A DNA stretch of 20,000 nucleotides from Rhizaria sp. SCN 62-66 (GCA_001724265.1 MEDY01000122.1:52745-72744), one strand, 5' to 3'; positions 1,980 through 20,000 are shown, counted from the first letter of the stretch. Translations and numbers: made by a program. Notes: generated from the sequence alone by a model not told the origin.

Positions 1980-2099
1980 GTACGCATTATTTTTCAGTCA
2001 AACGTCACTTTAAAATCACAATTATTCGCATTTCCGTTGAATATCTTCTCACAGTAGATTATGCTTTCCTTGTTTTTGTTATATCTCTTCTCCTTATAG
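1980..2099 (+). other. Spliceosomal GT-AG intron, 120 nt, phase 2
   Basis: Donor GTACGC at 1980, AT-rich body with in-frame TAA (2011-2013), pyrimidine tract and TTATAG acceptor ending 2099. Splicing joins AG+G (Arg) and fuses ORFs 103..2013 and 2107..10812 in frame (...TNTNR-RDVFKMQN...). Confidence 0.9.
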
Positions 2100-5000
2100 G
2101 CGCGATGTGTTCAAGATGCAGAACACCGCGGTTGTTCTGACGCACCTGCTGCTCACCGTGAGCGGCCGCGTCCATGGCCGCTTCGACAACACGTTGCTCC
2201 AGGCCTGCAAGTCGGTCACTCTGTACCTCTCGCGCGCGTGCCCGCTCTACGTGCTCAACGCGCTGGCCCTGCAGGTAACGCCCAACAGCCTGTTCGAGGC
2301 CGGCATTCCCCCGCCTCCGCATAGTAGCAGCGGCGACGCGGCGACCGCGACGTTCTCATCGGTCGCCCATCTCTACGCAAGCAACGGCAACGCTGCCGCT
2401 GAGAGCGACTCGAGTGAGACCGCTATTGTTACCGCTGCTTCTGCGTCTGCGCCTGCTACGAGTTCCAGCAGTTACTCCACCACTGCTGGCCTCTCTAGCT
2501 TCAGCCCCCGCAACTCCGCTAACTCCAGCGCCCCCGGCTCTCACATCGCCGCCGCCGTCGCCGCCCTGAGCAGCGGCGGCGCCGGCGTGGCCGCGGCCGC
2601 GGGCTCCGCCGCGCCCCGCGTGGACTGCGCAGCCGACCTCATGACCGTGGGCGCCAGCGCCTTCACCACGACGGCGCGCTCGACGGACGTCGCCGCCATC
2701 GCCGCCACGGTGCCGTACACGGCGCCTGTCGCGGCCGCCGCGGCAGACGGGCCACAGGGGCCCGGTTTGCTGTTCTCGCCGACAGCGGCCGCCGCCACTG
2801 CCAATACCAGTGCGCACACGCGCAACGCCGTCAACAGTCACTTGAAGTTCACCTTTGCCCCGACGACGACTGCTGGTGCTGCTGCTGCTGCTCCCGGCGA
2901 CTTTGCAGGCAGCAGCGTTGCCGCAACCTACGACGTCCTGGTCAACTCCCCGAACCCCTCCGCCGGACTCGAGGCCTTCACCGTGACGTCCTCGACGGCC
3001 TACGGCAACTACTTCCCCGGCGAGGCAGTGTACATGTCCCCCTCGACGCTCGCACTGTCGCTGCTCATCGACTCCGTGTACGAGCTCTCGCTCCCCGCCG
3101 CCGCCGCTGGGCTGTCCGCAGACACGGCCGCGCTTGAGGCAGGCGCGAGCTATCTTCTGAACAACAACAACAGCAACGGGAGTAACAGCGTGACGGCGGC
3201 GTTCTCCGCGCTATTCCGCCGGGCAGTCTGCGGCCGCAACACGAGCGGCGTGAACACCACCGCCAGCAACGGCTGCGGCTACTACAACAACATCAGCAAC
3301 AACACGAAGGGCGGCGCAAGCGAGAGTGAGAATAGCGGGTGTGTATTGGGCGACAGCTGGTCTCGCCAGCCCGTCTACAGTGCCGCTGCGCTCTTCGAGC
3401 TGCCAACGCTGACCGAGTGCTTGGTGCAGATCTTACACATCGGCGTCCAGGGCTTGGCGGCGCACAACAAGCTCATCGTGCGGCACCACTGCGCAATGCT
3501 GCTTGTGAATCTCACGCACGCCGTCACCTCGCTGCCCCCCATCAAGAGCGCTCACGGACAGTTTGTCGGCTCTGCTGCTCACGGCCACCCCGCCACTGCC
3601 GCCGCTGGTGCGACTATTGGTGGGGGCTACACTGGCGAGCGCGGGGCGTTCGTGCGCGTGCAGCAGCTCAAGGCACAGGCCTCGGCCCGCAAGCAAGGCG
3701 TCACCATGCTGCTCTGCGGGTACCTCGACTCTCTGCTCAAGACCACGGTGGACGATGTGAGCGCGACGATCGCCTTCACGCCGCGCTGCTGGGACATCGC
3801 GCTGCTCTACGACGCTAGCACCAGCGCGCAGACCGCCACCGCCGCGGCCGCCGCGCTCAAGGCCGGTGCGCGCAATCTAAGTACCCCGGCCACCGGTCTA
3901 AGTGCTGGCGCCCCGGTGCCCGACGCCGCAAGTGTGTCTGCGCAGTCCCCCGCCATCACCGTTGACGACGCGTCCTTGACCTCGCGCGTGACACGCTTGC
4001 TGCTCTCGGTCCTCGCCGACGCCGGTCTCTCACAGGCGCAGCTGGCCTTCTGCTGGGGCCATCTCGCGCTGCGCTGGGCGCTGGCGTCGCGCCACCCGCA
4101 GGCCAAGCTGCGCGCGCTCGACGTGTACCGCAACGCACAGCCGCAGTTCCAGCCCTCGGCGCTGCCGCTGCTGGCCCAGCTGCTGGCGCAGACGGCCGCC
4201 GGCACGCCCACCGGGCTGCTCGACGACAGCGTAGAGGGCTGCCTCCGCCGCGCCTGCGCCCCGCTCCTGGGTAACGTTAACTCTAATGATGCGAACTGTG
4301 GCGCTGCGAGCAGCAGCAACGCCGTCACAGTCACGGAAGCGTTTGTGGTTACTCGCGCGCTCGAAGACGCCCTGCAATACGACCGTCGCCGGCTCTTGAT
4401 CGCTGCTACCAGTGTGCCTCAGCTCACCCCTGCCGCAAACGCGTCATCTGCGAGTACATCCACGGGTTCTGACAGCTATAGTAGCAACAACGGCGGTGTC
4501 ACATCCCCGCGTGTTGCTCTGGCCAACCGCATGTCCTCTCTGTCGCTCTCCGACGTCAGCAGCAGCGTCCGCGCCCTGTTGGCCGCCGCTGGCCGTCTCC
4601 CGGCCGGCCGCGCCGAGGTGGCAGCGCTGGGCGCCGGCTTGGGCGCGGCGGCGGGGGCCGTGGACTGGGTCCTGGTGTCCAACACCGTGGGCGCAATGCA
4701 GCACCTGCTGGCGACTGCGCCGGCGGCAGTCATGAGCATCACCAACCACACGCTCGTCGCCGATAGTGACAAGGCGGGGGAGAGCGAGGCGCCGATAACG
4801 CTCATGGGCTGGTGCTCCCTCGCTTCCACTCTGCAGTCGCGCACGAGTGTTGCGGGAGCCACCGCCGCTGTGAGTGCCAAAGCTGTCGCTGCGCACAGGA
4901 CCCGCGCCCTCGGCAAGCTCATTACCGTCGCCGCGGCCTTCCGCGCTGTGCTGTGGTCCGCCGTCGGCCTCATGCGGCTTGACTTGCACACCGACCCCGC

Positions 5001-8000
5001 CGATAATAGTCGCGGCATGCTGCAGTCGCCCGTCTTCCCGCCCGCCTTCACCGCCGGCGCGAGGCTGCTGTCCGCGTTCGTCGACTCGCCGCTCACCACG
5101 CTGCACCCCGTCACGGCCAGCAGCGCGCACAGCGCATACGTCACCTCTCTGAACAGCAACAGTAACAGCAGCAGTACTGGCGCATTGATGGCGCTCACGA
5201 ACAACCGCCGGTGGGCGGTCGCGACGGCCTTCACCCAATTCCTGCAGTGGCACGCCGTGGCGCCGCCCGCGGAGCTGCTGGCGGTTCTCAGCGACAACAA
5301 CGGTGCCGCGCCGCTGCTGGCCGCCGGCGGCGTCCGGACGGCCACCGCGGTCGCCCGGTCCCGCCTGTCGCTCGCGGGCGCCGCAGCCAGCATGCAACAG
5401 TTCCAGTACCAGAACAACAACAGCAGCGGCAACGGAAGCGGCGGCTCCTCGAGTAACGGTGTTGCGCCGATGGCGTTCGCGTTCACCGGGCTGCACGCGC
5501 TGCTGATGCGCGGTGTGAGCACACTTAATACGCACGTCCGCGCCGTCGCCGCGCACAGTTTGCTGTCGCTGTGGTCCGCGCCCCCGACCCTGCTCACGGT
5601 CACCGACGTGGCCTACTTCGACAAGACGCCCTTCCACACCGCGGGCACCGCCGCGGCCGCCGTTACTGCGCTCGCGCAGAGCAACGGAAGCCAGGCCGCG
5701 CTGGGGGCGGCTTACCTTAACGTCGAGACGCTGCTGCCGCAGACCGCGGTGGTGACGGCGACTGTGGAGCAGTTCAACATCGCTGCCCCGCTTCTGCTGC
5801 GCCAGACGCCCGCCTTCTTGGCGCTCGTCACTGCGATTCCTCTGCTGATGCACGCGTTGTCCGAGCCCCGATCCTCGCTGCACGTGTTCAGCGACTTGTA
5901 CGTGCCGGCCACCTCCGCCACCCATAACCCCACCGCTGCGACCGCTAATAACAGCGGCGGCAACGCCGTGTACGTGAGTGGGCCCCAGAGGTCCAAGGCC
6001 GTCGCCGCCAAGGCTGCCGCCCACCAGTCCTCTCTCGCGAACAGCAACGGCAAGAACACCTCCGCCGTTGGTGTTTCGACCGAGAGTGGTTTCTTTGGCG
6101 TGGCCACACACAGCATCCATGACCCCTTTGCGACGGCCACGCTCGTGTCGCTCGCGGCGGGGCTGGCCGAGGCCCTGGCCAAGACGCCCAACGGCGCCGG
6201 GCTGCCCACTGCGCTGCACTCGGTCAACCTCACGCTGTGCCCCAACACCGCCGCTGCCCAGCGCAACGGCAGCAAGAGCAGCAGCTACAGCAACAGCTGC
6301 GTGAGCGGCCACAGCAACGCAGTGCACTACTCGCAGCTGGCGGTTATCCGCGCCGGCTCTGTGCCGCCGCTGCTGGCCTCGACGCTGCTAGCGCTGTCTC
6401 TGGCGGCCAAGGCCCGCGGGCTCGCCTTCGCGCTCGACGAGGTTGAGCTCAGCGCGGTCTTCGCGGCCTACTGCGAGAACGAGTACTACGAGCTCAAGTT
6501 CGTGCCTTTCTCCAACGACCAGGACGTGGCGCCCGACGACTCGTCGCTGCGTCGCCAGGCGGTCTATTTCTCGCGCACCCATAGTACGGGGGTGGGGGGC
6601 CGCGCACATGCCGCGAATGCGGCCGCCGCAGACCGTTCCCGTGCTCTGCTGTCGCCGACCGCTTCGGCGGCACTGACGTCGCCGCTGGCCTCTGCGTCGT
6701 TCTCGTTCTTCCCGTCCAATTCCACGTCCATCTCGAGCTCTCTTTCCTCGTCCAACGCGAAGTCTTCAGCGGCATCGTCGTCGAAGTACCCCCTTGGTGC
6801 TTCCTCTGCTTTGCCCCCCGCAGGCTACACGGCTTACACTCACAGCGACGACACGGCGGGCGGCCTAACTTCCGCCGGCGGCCTCTCCGTCCCGCCCGCG
6901 GCGCGCTTCCTGCAGGACGCGGGCGCTGTGCTGGCCGAGGCGCTGGCGTCGCTGCAGGTCTCGGCGTCGTCCCGCCTCACCAAGACCACGGCCGTCACGA
7001 CGGTGCTGACCGCCTGCGCGAGTCTGCTGGAGCCGCTGCTGCGGCCGGTGCACTCGCTCGCGCTGCTCGACGACCCGCACTACCACAACAACGCGAGCGG
7101 CACCCGCGCCGCCGCAAACGGCCGCCATGGCTTCGGCTCCGGCTCCGCAGGCCCCGCGGTCGGCACCGACGGTGTCTTCCGTCTCCCGACCGCTTTATCG
7201 TCGCTGTCTGTGCCCAGCGCGCTCGCACTGCTCCACACGCTCGGTGCGGGCTCGGCCGCCACGGCCGCGTCGCTGCGCGCGTCCGCCACCGCCTACCTCG
7301 GCCAGCTCCAGCAGCAGCAGCAACAGGCTAACAACATCAACGACTCTAGCGCGAGCACGAGTATGAGCGTGAACGCCAGCGTCAACACTGCGACTGCGAT
7401 GCTGCTTTCGGCGCTGGATCCTTCTCTGGCGCGCGCGCTGGCCGTCAGCGGCCCCGGCGACGAGCTTCTGGCGCTGCACACACTGCGCTTTGAGGCCCAC
7501 CAGACCGAGCTGCTGTACGCGATCATGGCGCACTCTGACTGGGGCTCGCCCATCTCTATCGACTCCGCGAACACGGCCAACAGCAGCAACGCGGTGGTCG
7601 TCGCGAGCGGCAGAGCGGGCAGCACGCGCAGCTCCGTCAGCGGCAGCGGCGCCGTCACTGGGGCGGGCGCGTCCCGCCTGGCCGAGGCCGCGGCCGCGGG
7701 CGCGCTCTTCCACGAGCTGGGCGAGCTTCTGGCCACGGCCGGCTGGCGGTCGATCGACCGCGTGCTCTCGCTCGCCGTGCGCACCAACACGGCCTCGGCC
7801 AGCAGCAGCACCGATCACGGCGACGGCGCGCGCGGCGGCTCCAGCACCGAGGTCGAGGACGGGCTGCGGTCGCGCCGCTACCTGGCCCACGTGGCCATGT
7901 CCGCGCCGGGCACGTACACCACCAGCGTGGGCTTCGCGACGCAGCAGGCGGCGTCGGTGGCCGCGCAGCTCGAGACGGCGCGCGTGGCTTGCCACAGCAA

Positions 8001-10812
8001 GGCGCTTGCCCGCAGTGCCAAGCAGCAGAGCGACGTAATGCGCCGCCGCTCGCTCGCGTTTAATAACAGCGACAACAGCAGCGGCAACGGTGCTAACACC
8101 CCGAACGCTGCTGCGAAGCTGAGCACGCGTGCTGTCGTCGTCGACGGCGCCGACGACGGCGACGACGTTGGCGTGGGCGAGGTCGTGGCTACCGGCGTCC
8201 GCCGCAACCGCGCCAGGTTTTCGCTGGCGCCCGCCGCGGCCAACTTCAGCGCCTTCGACGGCAAGGAGCAGCGCAAGCCCGATGCCGAAGAGGAGGACGA
8301 GGAGGACGGTGTCGGCGTGCCAACTGCGCACAGCAACCTGACGAAGCCGCCTAAGTCCCACGGCGCACAGCCGCAGCAGAGGCCCATGAGACCGACTCCG
8401 CCCGTGCCTGTCCGTCGCCGCCCGGCCCCCGCGATTCCGTCTACCGCGAACGCTGCTATCGATGAGAGCAACAGCGAGTTGACCGACACCATTCTCAACA
8501 GCTTGAATGTCGGCGCCGGAAGCAATGCAGTCGTTACCACGACCAACAAGGGTTCGACAGTCACCGTCACTGTCACGGCCACTCTGTCCCCGCGTGCGAA
8601 CGCGGCCAATGGCGCCAGCAGCGGGCATACCAAGGGCAAGAACAACTTCAACATCACGAGCGTCAACAGCGTCGTCACCGACAACAACAACGGCGCCGTC
8701 ATTGCCACCACGAATAACAACAATAATACCGCTCACACTAATACTGGCGCTAGTGGCTTCCTGAACGCCACCGCCCCAGCGAGTGGAATGAAGAAGCGTG
8801 GTGTCGCCCTGGCCCCTGTGACCGTGGACTCCGACTCCGAGGCCGAGACGGAGCCCGTCCCCCGCCTGCATACTATGGGCCTCGACCCCGCACCCGAGTA
8901 CGACGACATTGACGCGATTGCGTACGCGCAGCAGCAGGCGGTGGCGGCGGCGGCCGCGGCGGCTGCTGCGATGACGGAGCAGCAGCGCCAGAACCAGGCG
9001 TACCACACCGCGAACTACTCGAGCGACCACGTCAGCAGCGCCACCGCGAGCGCTACTGCTGGCGGCCCTGAGTATGCTGACGACGGCGACTATGAGCACA
9101 AGGAGCAAGACGAGGAGTACTACTCCGACCACGAAGACACTGGCTATGACCAGGATCAGGACCAGGAGGCTGAGGCTGAGTCTGAGGATGAGGCCGTGCT
9201 GGCGCTGGTGCAGTCGTCGGCGTTGTCCAGGTCGCGTCGGTCGCTGCTGATGTCCGAGCAGCAGCGCGCTGACATGGAGGCCGAGGCCGCCGCCGCCGCT
9301 GCCGCCGCCGTCGCCGCCGTCAAGGCCCGGGCGCAGCAGGCGCAGGCTCAGTCTCGCGCTCATGCCCAGGCCCAACAGCAGCAGCAGCAGGATTACGCCG
9401 ACTATGACGATGAGGAAGATGCCGGCAGCGAGGCCGAGGCCGAGGCGGCGCTGCGGGCCCGCGAGGCCAACCGTGACAGCTACCTGGACCAGCTTATGGT
9501 GTCACCCCGCAGCCACCACACTGGCGGCGGCCGCCACGGCCACCACAACAACAGCGGCAGATACTACAACAACAACGACGACGACGACGACGCTGACCAG
9601 GACGGCGACTGCGACGAGAACGACGTGAATGCCCACTTACACGATGTAAGTATCAGCGGGCTCGACGACAGCTCGGTCGATCCGGACACCGTGATCTCAT
9701 TCGCCAACGCCATCGCAGACGCGATGAAGGCCATCACCAACACCGCCGCCACCAACAACAGCAACGGCAGAAACAGCGGCAACGCCGGCTCTAGAGCCAG
9801 CGCCAGAAACCCGTCCGCCAAGGCCAACGCTCCCGCTGCGACTACCCGGGCGAACGCAGCCTCCGTCAAACTTGCCGCTGCTACTGGCGCTGGCTCTAGC
9901 GCTGCTGGCAAGAGCGCGAGCGCCCGGGCGGCGGCCGTTGCGGCGCGGCAGCAGCAGCAGCAGGCTTTGATCAAGGCCAACAAGCAGAAGGCCGGCGCCG
10001 GCGCCCCTGCGGCCCCCGCGGCGGCAGCCGCTGCTGCCCCCGCTGGCGCCGGCCCCAGCATGCTGACCGCGGAGCAGAAGCGTGCAATGATGATTGTCCG
10101 CAACGCACTCAGCCCCCGCCCCAATAACAACAGCGGCAACAGCAGCAGTGGCAGTGGCAGTGGCAATGCGAGTGCGGGCGTGCCTCGCGTGGCCAATCTC
10201 GCCAGCACGCGCACTGCGGCGGTGCAGCACACGCACAACGCCCACGCCGCTAGCAGCAGCAACGGCAACATCAACGGCAGCAGCACTGGCGCTGGCACTC
10301 CGTACAAGTCGCCGCTGATGCGCCCCGCCTCGGGCAACACACACGGCTCGCCGGCGCCCGCCTACAGCAGCAGCAGCGGCAGCGGCGGTAGTAACAGCAA
10401 CGTCAGCGCTGTTGCGAGCCGCAGTGCTGCCCTGGCCGCGGGCCGCAGCGCCAACGCAGGCGCCGCGAACGGCAACGCGCGTGTGGTGCCGTTGTCGTTC
10501 AACGGCAACAACAGCGCTGCCTCGGCTAGCGCGAGCAGCAACAGCCGTCTTAAATCCCCTGCACCGGCGCCTGCCACCGCCGGTGTTGGCAGCAGCTCGA
10601 GTGCGGGCGCCGTCAAGTCCCCGCTGCTGGCGGCTATGCGCGCGGCCAAGAAGGAGCCGGGCAATCCTCAGCAGCAGCAACAACAGCAGCAACAGCAAGG
10701 CGGCAATGTGCGCCGTATGGGTGGCACTGGCCTCACGGCGAGCTATCAAGAGTTGGAGGCGCAGCTGAGGGGCGCGGGGCACCTCGATCTTGGCCCTCCC
10801 CCACAGAAGTAA
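2100..10812 (+). CDS. FRY: Furry/Tao3/MOR2 family protein, terminal exon (about 2,900 aa, conserved blocks separated by long low-complexity insertions, disordered C-terminal tail)
   Basis: Uninterrupted frame with strong GC3 bias, ending at TAA 10810-10812. Furry-like blocks: NTAVVLTHLL...ACKSVTLYLSR, LVQILHIGV...IVRHHCAMLLVNL, WGHLALRWALASRHPQAKLRALDVYRNAQP (cf. WGAEALKWAMECTSRHLACRSHQIYRALRP), VLWSAVGLM. Confidence 0.85.
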
Positions 10813-11308
10813 GGGCGGAGACACTTGAGTATAATGTTTAAGAAGTACACGTACTTCATCATCATCATTTGCTTTGCGGCTCGCGAGTCCTTTGAATTTG
10901 TTTTGTTTATAGTTTTGTTTGATAATACGTTTACAAAAAGCGAGATGCAAGCTGTCGATAATACGATTATATAATCTTGAGGAATAAGACACATCGACGA
11001 TGATCTCGAAAAGAAAGATTATGATGATGGCGAAGTTTGATTATTATGATAATGATGACAGATCGTTTGTTGCATCAATATGAGAAAAGAAGAGAATTAA
11101 CATGTAAAAATACAGTTCTATTGTTTACGACGTTAAAAAAATTGTTCAGAGGGCGTGAAGGTACGCTAAGAAAATGAAAATAAATCTATGTATTGTGTGA
11201 TATTTAAGTAAACAAGTCAAGCACGTTACTGTCCTTGCAGCAACGATTCTATGTAAACTAAGCTAATTCTAAGAGTAAATCGGAACTGATTAATGTTCAA
11301 AGTTGTAA
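10813..11308. other. AT-rich spacer (about 500 bp) between convergent genes, containing both 3' UTR/termination regions
   Basis: Sharp drop in GC between TAA 10812 (+) and TGA 11309-11311 (-); no credible coding frame. Confidence 0.75.
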
Positions 11309-12416
11309 TCACTCATATTCCTCGTCATCATTATTTTGAAAATACTGCATGAGAGCGTCAACGTAACTGATAGAGCCATCTCCGTCAGATTTGTCGCCAC
11401 TCTCGGTGTTATTGGCGTCATCGGCGGCCGTGTTGATGTTCGCCTCGAGATAGTCACCGTCATTGCCGTCGTCATCATCGTCGTATTCGCCGTGGACGTT
11501 GTTATTGTCGTTGCCATCCAAAGCAGCGGCGTCAGCGTTGCTGTCGTCGTTGTGGCTCTGAGTGGTGATGTCAGTTGTGCTGCTGTCGTTCGCATAGCGA
11601 GACCGTTTAACGACAGCACCACTCTCATTCACATCAGATTCACCGAAACCTGTCTCACCGGCAGTGTTATCACTGCTTTGGTCGAGCGCACGCTTAGAAC
11701 GACTATTGGCGGACGCAACATGGGTGCTAGCGTTCCCATGATTAGCATAAACAGGGCCGACAACAAGCCTCGCAGGCGACAGTCCGTTGTAAACGTCAGC
11801 CATACTGTTGCTGGCGCCCCCATCGTCGTCACCAGGCAAGGGCGGCGTCAGACTGGGAACAGCCCTGCCACTCACCGGGGCAGCAACCAGACTCGCCGCC
11901 GAAACAGGCGCGCTCAGCCCGGTCCTCGGCGTCGTCCCGCCTGTGCCCGCGCCCGGCTTGAGCGCCCCCGGGGGTGTCGCCGTATTGCGCAAGGCGCCGA
12001 GCCCAATCGGCGAGACGGACAGCTGCGTCCTGAACCGCGGCAACAGCGTGCCACTGTTGGTGGCGCTTCCGCTCCCAGTGGCCCCAGCAGCCGCAGCACC
12101 GCCGGCGCCCGCGGGGGCGTTGACGCTCGGGCTCGAGGTCGCGCTCACGCCGACTGCGGACGCCGGCGGCGTGAGGCTGTTGCCGTTGGTAGGCGGGGTA
12201 TAGACCGCGGCGGTCGCGGCGTTGGCGCTGTGCTTAGACGCGTCTAAGTGGCTGGCCTGCGGCGGTGTCAGAGCAGGCGTTACGATCAACGTAGGGGTGC
12301 TAGAGCCGTTGTCACTGGCAGCGCTAGAGTTAGAATTTGAAATAGAGCGACTACCGCAAATGTGGGTTGTACTGCTGGTCGGCGTTTGTGCTCGCTGAGC
12401 CCGCTGCTGCTGCTGA

Positions 12417-12449
<33 letters not shown>

Positions 12450-15400
12450 TGCTGTTGCTGTTGCTGCTGAGTGCTGCTTGGATGACCGTGCGCGCTATAG
12501 CTCCCATGATGCTGGGTATTGTGACTGCTCGGCGGAGTGTTCGCAACGCCGTCGACGCTCCCAGGCGACCGGACCGGCCGACTATGGCTCTGGCGAGTCG
12601 TGGCGTCGTTGCTGGTGTTAAAAAAAACGTTATCACCCGTTGGCGACCGCGACAAAACCTCTGGAGTAAGACGTTTCATCGCGAAGGGCACCGGCACCGG
12701 CAGTGGCATCGGACTCTGGCTCTGGCTCTGGCTCCGGCTTTGGTCAACCGACCGGCTGCTGGCATCCCAGTCGTCGTTGTCGTCAAAGTCATCATTGTCG
12801 TCTTTGTTTTTACCGCTGCTACTTGCAGTGTTAACGATCTCGTTCTTGGGCGATCGTGACTGTGAGCCGCTGCTACGGGGGCTGCGGCGGAGTGACTGCT
12901 GCGAGGCCGCCTTGTTCTGAGTGGCGGGCGAGTGTGGGCGGGACTGCGCCCGGGACTGCGGCCGCGACTGCGAACACAGCCTACGCGCACTATCATCCGC
13001 ATCACCATCAGCAGTGCCATCGACGCCTGTGCTGGCTGCAGTCGCAGTAGCCGTTGCCATAGCAGCAGCAGCGGCAGCCTCGGAGGCAGTCCGAACTTTC
13101 GAGCGCGGGCTAGTCCTCGTGTTGAATCTCGTGTTCGTGTTACCAGTGCTGTTCTGCGACTGCACGTTCAACGGCGACTGCGATTGTGAGTGCTGAGCCG
13201 TATTGACGGCCCGGAACGGCGTTTTGCGCGGCGCAAACGGCGACGCCGCCGCGAGGAGCGCGCCCGTCGCACCCCTCACGCCCACGCTGACGCCGGCGAC
13301 AGCGGCGCCGAGGCCGCTGCCGCCTGCGCCGGCGCCGGGGGTGACGCTCGTGGCGGCGACCGAGGCGGCGGGGGAGACGCTGATGCTGATGTTGGTGTCG
13401 TTAGCGTCGGCGCTGTTGTCGCGAGAGAGCGTCGTCTTTGGTGCGGCTGAGCTTGCCGTCACGCCATTGGGGTTATTGTTATTGTTGTTGTTGGAGTTGC
13501 TCCGACTCGTGCGCTGCGAGAGTAAGGCAAAAGCTTCGTCAAAGTTTTCAGGAGCTTTGCCACTGCCGTCATGAGCAGCGCTGGCGTCACCGCCAGCAGC
13601 AGCGTCGCCACTTCTGGGGGTAGCATGCTGTTGTTGCTGCTGAGTCTTGCTTTTTCCCTTCCCCTTAACCTTCCCACCGCCAGTTGCGGGCACAGCAACA
13701 CTGCTGGCATCAAAGCTCGCACTCGAGCTATCATTATCATTACCACCAACATTCGCGACAGCAATGGCACTGGCATTGGCGGTGTTGCTGCTTTGCGGTG
13801 TTGCAAGAACAGGCGGCAGCTTCGAAGGGGACACGGACTGAGGGCCGATGCGCCGAGGCCGGCCACTTACATTCGAGTCGACACTTACGTTGTACAGTCC
13901 CTCGGCACGTACACCGCCAACGCTGACAGCACTTACATTGACGCTGCTTTGCAAGGCCGAACGCTTAGACGCGGCACCCTTAGATGCCAATGCACTTCCA
14001 TTCAACTCGCTATCATTACTGTCGGTAGAACTCACAGGAGCACCTACAGCAGCAGGAGTCGCCGTCGCGACAGGGACCGCGACGCTGGCAATGGTCGAGT
14101 GACCATGCGCGGCAGCAGCGGCAGCGTGGGAGCGGGCGCCGGCAGCAGCAGCGTGCACAGCGTTCATGGTGTTGCTGTTGTTGTTATGGGTTGAGGAGCG
14201 GATGAAGTTCTGGTTAAAGCTCGTGAAATCGCTGAAGCCGACGCTGTTGTTGTCAAAGGCGCCAATAGTGACTCCGTTTGAGTTCGCGTGAGCCGCTGCA
14301 GTCATAGCTGCCGCGTTGTTGCTGTTGTTGCCATTGTTGATGTTGTTATTGTTGCTGCTTGCGTTGTTTACGGGAGCGACTGTGGGCAGGTTGGACAGCT
14401 CTGAGTATCCCGGTGCTTGGGGCTGCAGCGGTAAGTACCCCGGGCGGGAGTGTAAGTACCCTGGCGGCGGAGAGTGCGAGTACCCCTGGTTCTGCCCAAG
14501 CAGAGGCGGACTCATCGCTGCCATGTTCGCGCTGCCAGAGCCGCTGCCCGCATGCGCGCCGGGCCCGTTGGCGTTGCTCGCTCCGTTTGCGCCCGTGCCC
14601 GCAGCGTTAGCAGTGTTATGAGGTCGGCCCCTGCTCTTGCCACCGGCGTTGACGCCGCCCACGGCAGCGGCATGAGCACTCGCAGCGCCAGCAGCGGCAG
14701 CAGCAGCAGCGTTGGCGCCGGCAGTGGTGATACTCTCAGCCGCACTGTTGCTGCTGCTAGGCGCGAAGGGAGCCATCGAGTGACCGTGAGCAGAGTGACC
14801 GTGAGCAGAGTGGGGCGAGACGTAGGTATTGTAGAACTGACTGTTGTTCACGGCCATATAAGGGTACGGACGCGGCTGGGACATGTAAGGGGGATGCCCC
14901 GCCATGTAAGGGGGGTGTTGGCCGCCCATGTAAGGGGGATTCTGGGGGTTGTAGGGCGGGTAACCATGAGTGTAAGGGGGGGCATGTTGCGAGTTGTAAG
15001 GGGCGTGCTGTGAGTTGTAAGGTGGGTGTAAGGGCCTGGTGTAAGGGGTCGGGTAGCCAGAGCCAGGAGCAATCATCGCTCGAGTGCTGCCATGACTACC
15101 ATTCGCACCTGCAGTGTTAGACTTGTTCTTATCAGTGTTCTGTTGTTGCTGTTGTTCCTCGACCGTGCTTTCGCTGTTGCCTGCAGGGGCTTTGTCCAAC
15201 GCTACAGCGCTAGTCGCAGCTTCGGTGTTGTTACTGTTGCTGTTGTTGTTGCTGCTGGCGCCAATCGAGGTTGTACGCGCACTGAAAGCGGAGAAATCTA
15301 GGGGGCCGTCGTCGGAGCCCTTAGACTCGATACCCTTAGATGGACCGACGTCCTTGGATTCAAGACCCTTAGACGGGGGCTGAGCACCCCTAGAAGCGCC

Positions 15401-18400
15401 CGTGGTCTGTCCCTTTTGTGACTGAGCGTCCGCGGCTTTGCCATTGGCGTCGGCATTCATTGTACTAGAAGCTGCTGTTGTCGCCGCCGTCGTTGCCGTT
15501 GCCGCTGCCGCTGCCGCTGCTGTTGTTGTTGTTGACGCCGGGGGCAAATATGACTGAAGTTGCAAGTATGACTGCGACTGCAAGTGCAGGTGCGAGCGTT
15601 GCGGGCTCAGCGGAGAGATGAACTTACCAGGCCCGCTTACATTCGCGCTCGAGGCGGTTACATTCCGGACCGAAGTACTTACACTGGCGTCACTGCCACC
15701 GCTATTTGTGTTCGCGTGAGTTGTCGCACCATTTGACGCCGTGTTAACATTAACAGGAGCAGCAGCGGCTTTAGAAGTAGCGGCGCCCGCGGCAGCAGGA
15801 GCAGCAGCAGCAGCAGCGGCGGCGGCGGCGGCAGCGGCGGCGGCGGCGGCAGCGGCGGCAGCGGCGGCAGCGGCGGGGCCACCCCCCTTTTTCCTGTTGT
15901 TCGCAGCCGAAACGACTCCGGCAGTCGCGCCGCCGGCGGCAGGAGTGACCGGGAGAGCAGCAGCAGCGGCCTTAGCGACGGCTTTCGTCTTGTTAACGGC
16001 GGCGACGGCGAGACCGTCACGCGCAGTAGAGCGATTGCTTGCCGTATCGTCCGCGTTTGAGTCGACAGTAGGGCTCGTTGGATCAGTCACGACATCAGCC
16101 TCGGCCTCAGCCTGGACCTTAGCGTGACCCTCAGAATTGCCCTGCTGATCAGCTTGAGTCTCACCATTGTCCGTTGCCTCAGCAGCAGTATTGGTCACAG
16201 TTTTGCCACCATTATCACTTACATTCGCACTTGCACTGTTCTTACTGGCGGTTTCAGTGGAGTTAACGCCGACGTGGAGGGGGTTGTAAGGGGGCGCAGG
16301 CGGCCGCGCCCCCGGCGTGTACAAATGTAAGTACTGCTGCTGTTGCTGTTGGTGTTGCGGCCCCTGCGCGTGTAAGTAGTGCACGTGTAAGTGCTGCATG
16401 TGCGCAGGCGTATGCTGCGAATATAAGCCGCCCGCAGCAGCCGGAGATTGAAGCATCGCCGTCCCTGCCTGCACCCCCCCGGCTCCTCCATAGTAAGGAG
16501 CCGGGGGGCTGGCCGCGACGCCCCGCTGCGGCAGCGGCATCGGGGTCGACGCCGCCGCCACCGCCGCTGCTGCGGCAACCGCAGCCTCCGCCGCCGCTGT
16601 CGTCTTGACGCCGCCACCAGCAGCAGTAGCGGAGTGACCGTGGGCAGCGGAGTGACCGTGCGCGGAGGAGGCGTGGCGGGCGTGGACTGCCTTCGGGGCC
16701 GGCGAGTGGGTGATCAAAGGACTCGTAATCACGAAATTGGCACTGACTGCCAATGTTGACTTAGCAGGATTGGCGCTATTGCCCTTAGCAGCCGCAGCAG
16801 GGTCGGCCGCGTTCGCTGCCTTGGGCGGAGCCTTTTTGGTCAACAAGGGCGTTTTGAAGCGGCTACCAGCATTAGCATTCGCAGTCGCGCTGCTGCTTGA
16901 GCTTGGCAAAGGAGCCGGCGATGAAAGGGGGACTTGCGGAGATGCAAATACTCCCTGACCCTTACTCCCTTTGTTGTTGACCGTCTGGGCCGCGGAGGCA
17001 CTTACACCTTGTAAGGGCGGCAGGGGCGACACCAGCACGGCTGACTCGGCGGCGGCACACTCAGCAGCATTGCCAGCAGCAGCAGCGTCTTTCACGTGAC
17101 CGATGCCGTTTCCAACAACACTCTTGGACGCGTTGGCGCCAGTATCAGCGTTAGCCGCGTTACCATTGTCGTTGCTGTTATCAATGGTGTCATCGTTGTA
17201 GCTCTGCTCCTGCTCCTGCTCATGTTGCTGCTGCTGCTGCTGCTCTTGCGGCAAGTGCGACTGCGAGGGCGGCTGCGCTTGTTGCTGCATCTGCAGCTGA
17301 AGCTGCTGTCGGTGCTGGAAGTTCAGCTGCTGCAGCTCCTGCTCCTGCCGCTGCTGCAGCTGCCGCTGCTCCTCCATGTGCTGCTGCTGCATCTGACGCA
17401 TGTGCTGCTCGTGTTGATGGTACAGCGCCTCCTGCTGCGGGCGCCCGAAGCTGGGGTTGCTCTCGAGCTCGAACTGTCGCCGCTGCTGGTATTGGCTCTG
17501 GAAGGCCTGGTATTGGTGGTGCTGGAGCTGCTGCTGGTGGCTGCGCTCGGCGTGGTGCTGGTGCAGCAGCAGCTGGTGCTGGTGCTGCTGCTGCTGTTGC
17601 TGATGCTGTGCCTGTTGCTGTTGCTGTTGCTGCAGCTGCTGCATGGGCATGGGCGGTTGTTGAGCCATATAAGGAGTGTAAGGATGGTGTTGCATCGGGT
17701 AAGAAGGGTAAGTACCCACGGGGTTGTAAGGGCCGCCCATGTAAGGGCCAGCTCCTGGGTAAGGCTGATGCTGTTGGTGGTGTGAATACATGTGCAGCTG
17801 GGTGGGAAAATGCTGCGACGGCATGTGTGGCGGCTGCTGCTGCTGCCTTTGCGTCATAGCGTTGCTCTTATTAGCCGCCGCCGCCGCTGCAGCAGCAGCG
17901 GCCGTGACCGCCGCCGCCGCCGCCGCCGCCGCCGTCGTCGTCTCCATTTTCGCGCCCACCGAGGCGCCGCTGTCTTTGGCCGCGGCCTTGCGGGCCTTGA
18001 CCGAGGGAACCGTTGGGCGGCCTGACTTCGATTCGCCGCCAGCAGCGCCGTTGCCGACCGTAGTGGCAGCAGTTGCCGACAAAGCGTTCGGGTTGCTGTT
18101 GTAGGCGTTGGCAGCGGTGCTCGCGATGCCAACGCCCGCCCCGACGGCTGTGTTACCAATGGGATTGAAACTGAGACTGCGGCTGACCGTCGCAGCACCC
18201 GTGGCAGCGGCCCCAGTGGGTCCGCTGGCGCTGCCGTAGTTGACTGCGATGCCTGCACTGGGGTGTTGTGCGGCGAGGTTGACGTTCCCGCTTGAGTTGC
18301 TGTTAACGGTGAGCGCAGGATTGGCGCTCAAAGCGTTCGGGATGGCGTTACTGTTAGCTGTTGCTGTTGACGCAACTGCAGAGTCGGCGTCAAATGAGAA

Positions 18401-18430
18401 CGAGTAAAGGATTAAATACGCGCCATTCTC
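11309..18430 (-). CDS. Terminal exon (2,373 aa) of a large, mostly disordered protein with poly-Q, poly-A, PY-rich and N/S-rich tracts
   Basis: The ORF extends upstream of the TTG at 18331 to an acceptor TTATAG| (AG at 18432-18431). The exon starts in phase 0 with ENGAYLILYSFSFDADS and ends DDEEYE-TGA (11311-11309). Confidence 0.85.
12403..12469 (-). repeat. (CAG/CAA)n coding microsatellite, poly-Gln (Q17-H-Q4)
   Basis: Run of (gct/gtt) triplets on +, in frame in gene 2. Confidence 0.9.
14880..15050 (-). repeat. Degenerate 6-8 aa PPY/APY peptide repeat (HPPYNSQ-HAPYNSQ-HAPPYTHG-YPPYNPQ-NPPYMGGQ-HPPYMAG-HPPYMSQ)
   Basis: Recurring TGTAAGGG on + at roughly 21-24 nt spacing. Confidence 0.8.
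15800..15874 (-). repeat. (GCC/GCT)25 poly-Ala tract
   Basis: 25 consecutive Ala codons in gene 2. Confidence 0.9.
17205..17645 (-). repeat. Gln/His-rich low-complexity region (CAG-rich)
   Basis: Dense (ctg)n on +; translation QQLQQQQQQQAQHQQQQQQHQHQ...QEQQQQQQHEQEQEQ. Confidence 0.85.
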
Positions 18431-18636
18431 CTATAAGCCGCACAAATGATGCACAAAGAAAACATCCAAGCATACAATAACGTGACCGTGTGAGGAGGCG
18501 ACACACAAACGACAAATTAATGCGTCATATACACGAAAAGCAATGTAAAACAAGCCAACATATATGAGATTGTAATAGATGCACTATGCCATAAAATCGC
18601 ATCATCGCGGCGACATCTTTGTTGCTAAAAACGTAC
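18431..18636 (-). other. Spliceosomal GT-AG intron, 206 nt, phase 0
   Basis: Donor GTACGT at 18636, acceptor TTATAG ending 18431, AT-rich body. It has the same GTACG/TTATAG signature as the FRY intron and joins ...KKLNKE to ENGAYL... Confidence 0.8.
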
Positions 18637-18909
18637 TTCTTTGTTAAGCTTCTTGCAAATGTCGCCGATCGTAGGTATGTCAGCCTTGGCAGTCTTGTTC
18701 TTACCACCGCTGCCAGACTAGAGCGTCACCGTCGCGTCCGTGTGCGCAAGCAGCGTTAGCTTCGGCGGCTTCCCGCCCCACAACGAGGCCGGGGTGAGGC
18801 GCTAGTGGAGCCGTTTGACGGCCTTGGTCGACAGCCAGGAAGCGGGGAGCTAGAAATCGCGCGTGCTTTTGCTGCCCGTGCGCTCGACGATGCGTCCCAT
18901 TTCGAATGG
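18637..18909 (-). CDS. Exon 2 (91 codons) of gene 2, with three in-frame TAG codons: PFEMGRIVERTGSKSTRDF*LPASWLSTKAVKRLH*RLTPASLWGGKPPKLTLLAHTDATVTL*SGSGGKNKTAKADIPTIGDICKKLNKE
   Basis: GC-rich island bounded by acceptor GTACAG| (AG at 18911-18910) and donor |GTACGT (18636), both phase 0. Hand count gives 71/91 codons ending in G/C. The translation resembles the TKI1/CRAMP1 conserved domain. Confidence 0.72.
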
Positions 18910-19093
18910 CTGTACGGTAAAATATGGAGAATCGTATAATTAGTAGTATGACAAAGTATTGATGAGACATACCCAAATATGGATGCATACCAAGCGAAAG
19001 AGAGAAACGGTGGTGGAGAGTCATCGGAGGGAACGTTGCACGAGACGGTCTATATCGCGGCTTAACAAAGGGAAGTAGTAATAGATAACGTAC
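18910..19093 (-). other. Spliceosomal GT-AG intron, 184 nt, phase 0
   Basis: Donor GTACGT at 19093, branch-point-like TACTAAT about 30 nt before the CAG acceptor ending 18910, pyrimidine/AT-rich body. Confidence 0.7.
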
Positions 19094-19138
19094 AAATGGA
19101 ATGAGTCGGAGGGTGACTGTGCTGCCGTCCGACGCCAT
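19094..19138 (-). CDS. Probable first coding exon of gene 2 (MASDGSTVTLRLIPF)
   Basis: ATG at 19138 (context CACATGG), 15 codons, then a GTACGT donor in phase 0. VTLRLIP resembles the TKI1/CRAMP1 motif IKLQLFP. Confidence 0.68.
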
Positions 19139-19708
19139 GTGTATAGAAAGAAAGCTAGCCCGCGGACGGGTGCCTGTGGGTTGCAGAGGGGGATGGCGAG
19201 TGCATGTGAGAAAGTGGGAGCGCGGGAATGAGTGCATAGAGTATCAATAGGCGTTTCAGGAAATATAATAAGGTAGTCAAGTATAAAAGTGGATTTTAAA
19301 ATCGATATCTGAACAACGCATCTGTTAACGGATATCGTGCATCGCTGGATACGTTCGAAGATAAGTGATCTGGAAGGCGCGAGAACGACTCGTTTCGCAT
19401 CACGTAACTCTACCAGAGCCAATATACTTTTTACGTCATTTAACGACCAGACTCTTGAGATATGCAAAGAAATTGATAGCGTTATGATATAAAAAGATAA
19501 GTTGAATTGATTTGAAGACTTCGATGTGTATGATTATGAGTTTCTTTCGCAGCAGCCCGCCTTGAAGGACGAGCCCAAAGCGAGAGCAAACTTCAGTCTA
19601 TCTAGAGAAGAGAGAGTGAGATAATGAATGGGTGAGTGCAAAGAGTGCGCAGTAATGCCGCACTCTTACACCAGAGCGGCTAAACTACTCATACTCGTCA
19701 TCACCAGC

Positions 19709-19786
19709 GCAACAGCAGCAGCAGCAGCAGCGCAGAGCGCAGCCGCAACAGCAGCAGTAGCAGCGGTGACAACAGCAACAGCAGCA
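19709..19786. repeat. Non-coding (GCA)n-type trinucleotide tract in the RPS18 3' UTR/downstream region
   Basis: gcaacagcagcagcagcagcagcagcg...acagcagcagtagcagcg...acagcaacagcagca, 45-125 nt after the RPS18 stop. Confidence 0.7.
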
Positions 19787-19831: not shown

Positions 19832-20000
19832 TTACTTGCCAGCAATGAGGGAGGTGGTGCCACGGTGACGGCCGTTGCTCTTGGTGTGCTGGCCACGGAC
19901 GCGGATGTTCCAGTGGTGACGGAGACCACGGTGGACACGGTTGCGCTTCATGCGCTCGAGGTCGTTACGGAGGCAAGTGTCAACGGTGGAGCCGATGAGC
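19832..20000 (-). CDS. RPS18: 40S ribosomal protein S18 (uS13), C-terminal part, 5'-truncated by the window; absent from the supplied ORF track
   Basis: Frame starting at 19999 reads [58 protein letters not shown] (19834-19832). This matches the uS13 signature [35 protein letters not shown]. Confidence 0.96.

Follow-up and report, generated by a model that had tools for sequence, protein, structure and literature searches.

A frame-preserving exon with three in-frame TAG codons near the start of a long gene of Rhizaria sp. SCN 62-66

Gene 2 and its second exon

The 20,000-nt stretch of Rhizaria sp. SCN 62-66 analysed here (GCA_001724265.1, MEDY01000122.1:52745-72744; called the window throughout) is eukaryotic DNA in which GC-rich exons (about 0.61-0.72) alternate with AT-rich introns and spacers, and its sequence was found in metagenomes from wastewater, bioreactor and activated sludge. 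It holds a FRY/Furry-like gene on the plus strand and, on the minus strand, both the last codons of uS13 (RPS18) and a long gene for a low-complexity protein, hereafter gene 2, whose second exon carries three in-frame TAG codons and neither CAG nor CAA. Gene 2 is the only one of the three to start inside the window, FRY and RPS18 both having their 5' ends beyond its edges.

The model of gene 2 was obtained by enumerating combinations of ATG, donor and acceptor on the minus strand and then checking the coordinates. Exon 1 (E1, 19138-19094, 15 codons) consists of the ATG at 19138 and 14 further codons (MASDGSTVTLRLIPF), ends at the donor TTT/GTACGT and forms the 3' margin of an island of high GC (about 19260-19094) in AT-rich surroundings. 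It is followed by intron 1 (19093-18910, 184 nt, 42% GC), which runs GTACGT...CCGTACAG and whose acceptor is preceded, at a distance of about 30 nt, by a TACTAAT. Exon 2 (E2, 18909-18637, 273 nt, 91 codons) begins after a pyrimidine-rich CAG, ends at the donor GAA/GTACGT, is in phase 0 on both sides and has an internal ATG at 18900. Intron 2 (18636-18431, 206 nt, 40% GC, GTACGT...GCTTATAG) leads into exon 3 (E3, 18430-11309), a long open reading frame (ORF) of 2373 codons plus a TGA stop, the product of which is of low complexity, rich in Gln, Ala, Asn and Ser, and matched by no Pfam family. Position 18909, given as the end of its span by a reading of the same DNA made from sequence alone, is the first base of E2 and not the gene start.

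The splice signals resemble one another and those of the neighbouring gene: the donors of E1 and E2 are both GTACGT, close to the GTACGC of FRY, and the acceptor of E3 (CTTATAG/G) is like the FRY acceptor. The first Met of E3 is its codon 163. Codon usage is coding-like and stop-free in the E3 frame from the acceptor onward (+0.44 bits/codon, versus -0.61 and -0.70 off frame), that is, for 162 codons before Met163, and a start further upstream is therefore needed.

Two joins of these exons can be compared. Joining E1 to E3 gives a 2,388-codon ORF in the standard code that opens with a proper ATG, is free of internal stops and ends in TGA, while the join of E1, E2 and E3 meets stops at codons 35, 51 and 79. 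Because E2 is 273 nt long (91 x 3) and is flanked by phase-0 introns, skipping it keeps the frame and needs no recoding.

The three TAG codons

The TAGs lie on the minus strand at 18852-18850 (codon 35 of the gene and codon 20 of E2; TTC TAG CTC), 18804-18802 (codon 51; CAC TAG CGC) and 18720-18718 (codon 79; CTC TAG TCT). The E2 coding strand has no TAG trinucleotide besides these three, and none off frame where about one would be expected from the density in the gene 2 coding sequence (CDS; 26 in 7,119 nt). All three read CTAG, a tetranucleotide found 3 times in 264 nt of E2 versus 9 times in the 7,119 nt of the gene 2 CDS and 9 times in the 8,709 nt of the FRY CDS. From the ATG at 18900 to 18637, E2 has 88 codons with 3 TAG, 0 CAG and 0 CAA; the three codons before that ATG read Pro-Phe-Glu.

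The rest of the coding sequence gives a very different picture. FRY, which served as the comparison set, has 145 Gln codons and no TAG, and the FRY exons and E3 taken together have 266 CAG and 61 CAA, or 327 Gln codons, and no TAG in 5,936 codons. None of these 5,936 codons is an in-frame TAA, TAG or TGA either, zero counts that are to be read with the fact that absence of stops was the criterion by which the long ORFs were delimited. For all three TAGs to fall in a particular 91-codon block the chance is 3.4e-6, rising to about 2e-4 when every block is counted, and the chance of finding neither CAG nor CAA in 88 codons, where 3-5 Gln codons are expected, is 0.007-0.03. The local pattern is real and reproducible, and odd in statistical terms.

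A uniform reassignment of TAG to Gln is excluded, because all three TAGs fall in one 91-codon exon and there are none to set against the 327 Gln codons elsewhere. The sequence-only reading had already drawn this conclusion, having noted that every candidate Gln position in the first 106 codons is TAG, that a C precedes each of them and that TAG is absent from the remainder. Our counts bear it out on each of these points, and E1 plus E2 (15 + 91 codons) reproduces its partition of 106 + 2373. Its further claim that TAG is confined to the 5' end of the gene holds in so far as all three are within the first 106 codons; more exactly, the confinement is to one internal exon, E2.

The TAGs are not assembly errors, since DNA contigs of two other studies are identical at these positions. 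A DNA contig of a different study covers 18000-19698 with no difference, two DNA contigs of a third study cover 18209-19698 with a single one (G>A at 19273), and a further metagenome contig of 2,539 nt is 100% identical. This last contig was the one relative confirmed by tblastn among the 594 pattern matches listed in a metagenome scan. A minor CAG allele may be present, because contigs drop rare variants. As a separate observation, the contigs of three studies are identical or one base apart over 1.5-1.7 kb within 18000-19698, AT-rich noncoding sequence included, which suggests a very uniform lineage that is widely spread in engineered water systems.

RNA data touch the region at one side. 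In a poly(A) metatranscriptome (X5), one contig of 239 nt (depth 4.8) covers 18258-18496 unspliced, across the E3 acceptor and an alternative acceptor at 18375; its source could be pre-mRNA, intron retention or carried-over DNA. No splice joint was reported in four runs, and the RNA contigs of X5 and of a second run (X8) leave out 18497-19559, where E1 and E2 lie.

For the Pfam and fold searches, the E2 peptide was taken as the 88 residues from the ATG at 18900 with TAG read as Gln. A phmmer search with the E2 peptide against 1.84 billion representative proteins returned one match (E = 1.6e-4), rejected as spurious, because it amounts to 26 residues that recur throughout a protein of 3,445. 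Two short matches in genome contigs (35 and 39 residues, 41-43% identity), both in bacterial metagenome-assembled genomes, and one of 16 residues in viral contigs were put down to chance. The peptide has no Pfam match and E2 has no second copy within the window. A single-sequence AlphaFold model of E2 has a mean predicted local distance difference test score (pLDDT) of 60.5 and the order beta-beta-alpha-alpha-beta-beta-alpha, and Foldseek found no match to it in the PDB at E <= 0.001 (best E = 0.027).

Known stimulatory 3' contexts of readthrough are of the UAG-CARYYA type, or consist of a stop followed by CUAG. The hexamers 3' of the three TAGs are CTCCCC, CGCCTC and TCTGGC, and no mark of programmed readthrough was seen at the TAGs, whether a stimulatory 3' context, a significant structure or an Rfam element. 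RNA folds around them are no more stable than those of shuffled sequence (z = -0.62, -1.45 and +1.02). The whole 20-kb window has no tRNA gene and no Rfam match.

Readings of the exon

We take the TAGs, with about as much confidence as doubt, to be real stops in a skippable E2, a recently disabled or unproductive exon. This reading is the simplest and requires nothing new; it assumes either that three oddly targeted hits occurred recently or that stops were selected for in an exon which still has a translated look. The productive mRNA would be E1 joined to E3, with 19093-18431 removed as one 663-nt intron, and its product would be a 2,388-residue low-complexity protein in the standard code. 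Transcripts that include E2 would stop after 34 codons and be unproductive. E2 may have been a normal coding exon until recently, and may then have been knocked out when its three CAG codons each changed from C to T, perhaps together in a single clustered and strand-coordinated event; a CAG-to-TAG transition would be the commonest route to a stop in coding sequence rich in G and C at third codon positions (GC3). Alternatively, E2 may now act as a "poison" exon. The skipping of E2, the CAG origin of its TAGs and their recency are the parts of this account that we infer. In support of it, the E1-E3 join is complete as it stands, and no sense use of TAG is seen in the other 5,936 codons, with their 327 Gln codons. 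A disabled or regulatory exon is more likely than a novel mode of decoding.

Poison cassette exons and nonsense-associated skipping couple alternative splicing to nonsense-mediated decay. Judged by its sequence, the anatomy of gene 2 would work like that of a stop-bearing cassette exon: E2 is internal, has splice signals that look functional, contains premature stops and has a length that is a multiple of three, so that skipping restores the frame. Known poison exons are usually non-coding-like and are conserved as regulatory elements; E2, unlike them, keeps full coding periodicity and codon bias past its first stop. There is an ordinary way out, exon skipping, and one property is left over, an E2 free of decay.

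This property weighs against a skipped and disabled exon. In the TAG frame, the GC content of E2 by codon position is 0.51/0.51/0.80 (GC3 0.78-0.80), a periodicity reached by only 5 of 100,000 shuffles (p = 5e-5). The GC3 excess is kept in all four segments bounded by the TAGs (0.74, 0.87, 0.93 and 0.59), and E2 therefore has no frameshift. Its codon adaptation index is 0.622, which compares with 0.612 +/- 0.078 for in-frame 91-codon windows of E3 (n = 26), with 0.447 +/- 0.089 for off-frame windows of E3 and with 0.36 and 0.41 for the off-frames of E2 itself. The marks of a neutrally decaying pseudo-exon that were looked for in E2 (mixed stop types, frameshifts and lost codon bias) are absent.

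Simulated decay points the same way. A crude model, run 1,500 times under each of two mutation spectra from a presumed ancestor in which the three sites were CAG, needed a median of 80-93 substitutions to give three in-frame stops. The three stops were TAG throughout in 12% of the runs; in 0.5-0.7% they were TAG throughout and every Gln codon had gone, and the codon adaptation index was at or above the observed value in 0.5-0.6%. The complete observed pattern appeared in none of the 1,500 runs of either spectrum (0/3,000). Long neutral decay explains E2 poorly, and a simple damaged allele is no comfortable fit either, because E2 is without sign of decay. The same allele in the DNA contigs of two further studies also shows that it is not a private lesion.

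The mutational targeting has to be explained as well, every presumed ancestral in-frame CAG having changed while, on reading the sequence, 2 off-frame CAG, about 6 CTG and 4 other CCA in E2 were spared. No shift of the kind left by repeat-induced point mutation is found in E2, with TpA/ApT at 1.14 and (CpA+TpG)/(ApC+GpT) at 1.10 (small counts); the other exons have 0.83-1.21 and 1.19-1.31, respectively. Further, E2 is probably included at least sometimes, because the splice signals look good on both sides, and the hydrophobic strands of E1 and of the start of E3 may be parts of one small domain that needs E2.

The foremost alternative, which we hold to be unlikely and yet worth serious attention, is that TAG is translated, as Gln or another residue, perhaps by a suppressor or near-cognate tRNA combined with weak termination, and that E2 is a constitutive coding exon. 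The clustering would then be a position effect (a large distance from the poly(A) tail of a >7.5-kb mRNA, or closeness to the start codon) or a tolerated local mutational history. Much of what troubles a disabled exon is what such decoding would leave behind: periodicity and codon bias intact in the TAG frame across all three TAGs with no frameshift, TAG as the sole stop type with all three coding-strand copies in frame, a pattern that random decay reproduced in none of 3,000 runs, and an allele identical in the DNA contigs of two further studies. As E2 has neither CAG nor CAA against the 3-5 expected (P = 0.007-0.03), TAG would fill the place of Gln. The gene ends in the window, TAA, TGA and TAA, do not use TAG in any of three cases, which is weak support given how few they are.

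Against translation stand the 5,936 other codons with no TAG and the probability of about 2e-4 for such clustering under uniform usage. Three leaky readthroughs in series would leave almost no product, and the window offers no tRNA gene or recoding structure that would help. The identity of the residue is also doubtful: E2 has no Tyr either, so that "Gln" is a guess, and no homologue of E2 was found that would fix the residue at the TAG positions. There is no known mechanism for such a restriction and no support for it outside E2. Among the titles and abstract openings returned by one literature search, none tells of a nuclear genome in which a stop codon is read as sense at the 5' end only.

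Variant codes that are on record differ from what the window shows. A passage of PMC11687900 describes a nuclear UAG-to-Gln reassignment of the NCBI table 15 type in phyllopharyngean ciliates, to which E2 is similar in having in-frame TAG where Gln is expected, in a window whose stops are TAA and TGA. It is dissimilar in that table 15 codes scatter TAG through all genes, whereas here, among the three genes examined, all three TAGs are in one exon and none stands against 327 Gln codons. Context-dependent stop/sense codes are described for Condylostoma and Parduczia in part of PMC4967479, and a section of PMC6394959 reports in-frame stops in 12 of 14 dynein heavy chain transcripts of Amoebophrya sp. 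ex Karlodinium veneficum, with third positions favouring A/U. The idea of a codon that is sense far from the mRNA 3' end and stop near it is common to these ambiguous codes and to translated TAGs in E2. Unlike such codes, in which in-frame stops are frequent and thin out only shortly before the true stop, more than one stop codon is involved and third positions favour A/U, the window has about 5,900 stop-free codons and a GC3 of 0.65-0.83. As sense stops are not spread through the roughly 5,900 codons available, gene 2 is not a member of a reassigned or an ambiguous code.

A more specific version, in which E2 is constitutive and translated and UAG stands for an amino acid only close to the beginning of a very long mRNA, or well away from its poly(A), or after stage-specific editing, with the standard code holding otherwise, appears to us still more doubtful. 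Decoding restricted to the 5' end is an idea drawn from a single gene start. The sequence-only reading put forward three causes, each of them conjectural: recoding close to the start or far from poly(A), a mutation bias from C to T near the promoter that a suppressor tRNA tolerates, and editing limited to the 5' end.

That the 5' gene model is wrong seems quite improbable. E2 would in that case be the remnant of another small gene, an exon of the 5' untranslated region (UTR) or of an upstream ORF, or it would be bypassed by a transcription start inside intron 2; the initiator Met of the protein would then have to be another one, such as Met163, which has an AAAATGG context. The unspliced X5 contig, crossing both the E3 acceptor and 18375 (18496-18258), would fit this, as would the fact that the E2 peptide has no credible homologue among 1.84 billion proteins, no Pfam match and no fold match at E <= 0.001. 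Yet that contig may be pre-mRNA or library DNA, a transcript from about 18496 would have three out-of-frame upstream ATGs, and E3 is coding-like in frame for 162 codons before Met163. E1, E2 and E3 are moreover in phase with matching splice signals, and the periodicity of E2 is in exactly the frame that the junctions set.

RNA editing that restores sense, by UAG to UGG (Trp, A-to-I) or UAG to CAG (U-to-C), so that full-length protein is made only when editing is on, is in our view very improbable. The intact coding signature combined with genomic stops resembles edited "PSC pseudogenes", that is, pseudogenes with premature stop codons, and two of the three TAGs are in predicted loops, of folds that are no better than shuffles. 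Three Trp at the TAGs would bring E2 to 5/91 Trp, which is unusually rich, and nothing marks the organism as a filamentous ascomycete: the uS13 tail best matches chain 9ygm, with small margins over fungal and plant chains. The next-best structure chains for this tail are ones that we take to be apicomplexan (Plasmodium, Toxoplasma). Fungal A-to-I editing, as a passage of PMC11156358 has it, favours U at -1, hence UAG, and hairpins; here the U at -1 is fixed by the codon itself and the hairpins are no more stable than shuffled sequence by the z-scores given above. For Fusarium graminearum, a passage of PMC10776026 counts 71 edited premature-stop pseudogenes, six with two sites, and has no case with three. 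Gene 2 is like these examples of restorative editing in carrying genomic in-frame TAGs in an otherwise functional-looking gene, where several sites per gene can occur, and unlike them in having three sites rather than one or two, hairpins that are not supported and an ascomycete identity that is not supported.

Other ways of reading the locus were considered and rejected. A plus-strand reading of E2 also meets three TAGs in its GC3-rich frame, CTAG being palindromic, and has no ATG and no splice logic. That the TAGs serve as the YAG of alternative 3' splice acceptors conflicts with the coding periodicity upstream of them. An unspliced start at the ATG at 18592 would need two more in-frame TAGs to be read through (18586-18584 and 18433-18431) in an AT-rich, noncoding-looking stretch. 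It can be added as a side observation that intron 2, read in the E3 frame (18431-18592, minus strand), is open for about 50 codons up to that ATG except for these two TAGs, probably by chance.

What the locus would mean depends on which reading is right. If the TAGs are plain stops, as we favour, E2 is a tidy example of a frame-preserving exon lost or turned into an off-switch, and a caution to those who call genes in metagenomic eukaryotes against deducing a changed code from a single exon. Were E2 translated instead, it would show the start of stop-codon capture, with TAG tolerated in one place and absent from about 6,000 neighbouring codons, and would bear on how genetic codes change without wrecking the proteome. 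A conditional reading of UAG, if true, would be an early or conditional stage of such capture for which no nuclear precedent is on record.

Neighbouring genes and introns

The FRY/Furry-like gene occupies the plus strand with exons at 1-1979 (660 codons) and 2100-10812 (2,903 codons, TAA stop), and matches the Pfam family MOR2-PAG1_mid (E = 1.5e-9). Its intron (1980-2099, 120 nt) runs GTACGC...CCTTATAG. A FRY fragment found no match among genome contigs and, among the longer proteins of a protein collection, matched the window's own product only, which is encoded on a 91-kb contig. FRY and gene 2 are convergent, their stop codons separated by a 496-nt spacer of 33% GC (10813-11308). In both large proteins (2100-10812 and 11309-18430), low-complexity runs of Ala, Gln or Asn and others rich in Ser predominate, their codons forming GC-rich triplet repeats, and Pfam searches with 2,923 and 2,373 residues of these two large ORFs gave no match.

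All three introns of the window (1980-2099, 18910-19093 and 18431-18636) start with GTACG(T/C), have 32-42% GC between GC-rich exons and, in two of the three cases, end with CTTATAG. They can serve as models of splicing in the annotation of this uncultivated eukaryote.

The last 55 codons of uS13 (RPS18) and its TAA stop lie at 19832..20000 on the minus strand, and in an RNA contig its 3' UTR reaches about 19560. Within this GC-rich UTR, 19699-19767 (minus strand) is a triplet repeat of the CTG/CAG type, which on the plus strand appears as a CAG run broken by one TAG; no ORF of at least 150 codons was found at the repeat. The C-terminal tail of uS13 (19835-19999, minus strand) differs from the usual basic tail, and in two aligned chains the match fades over the last residues.

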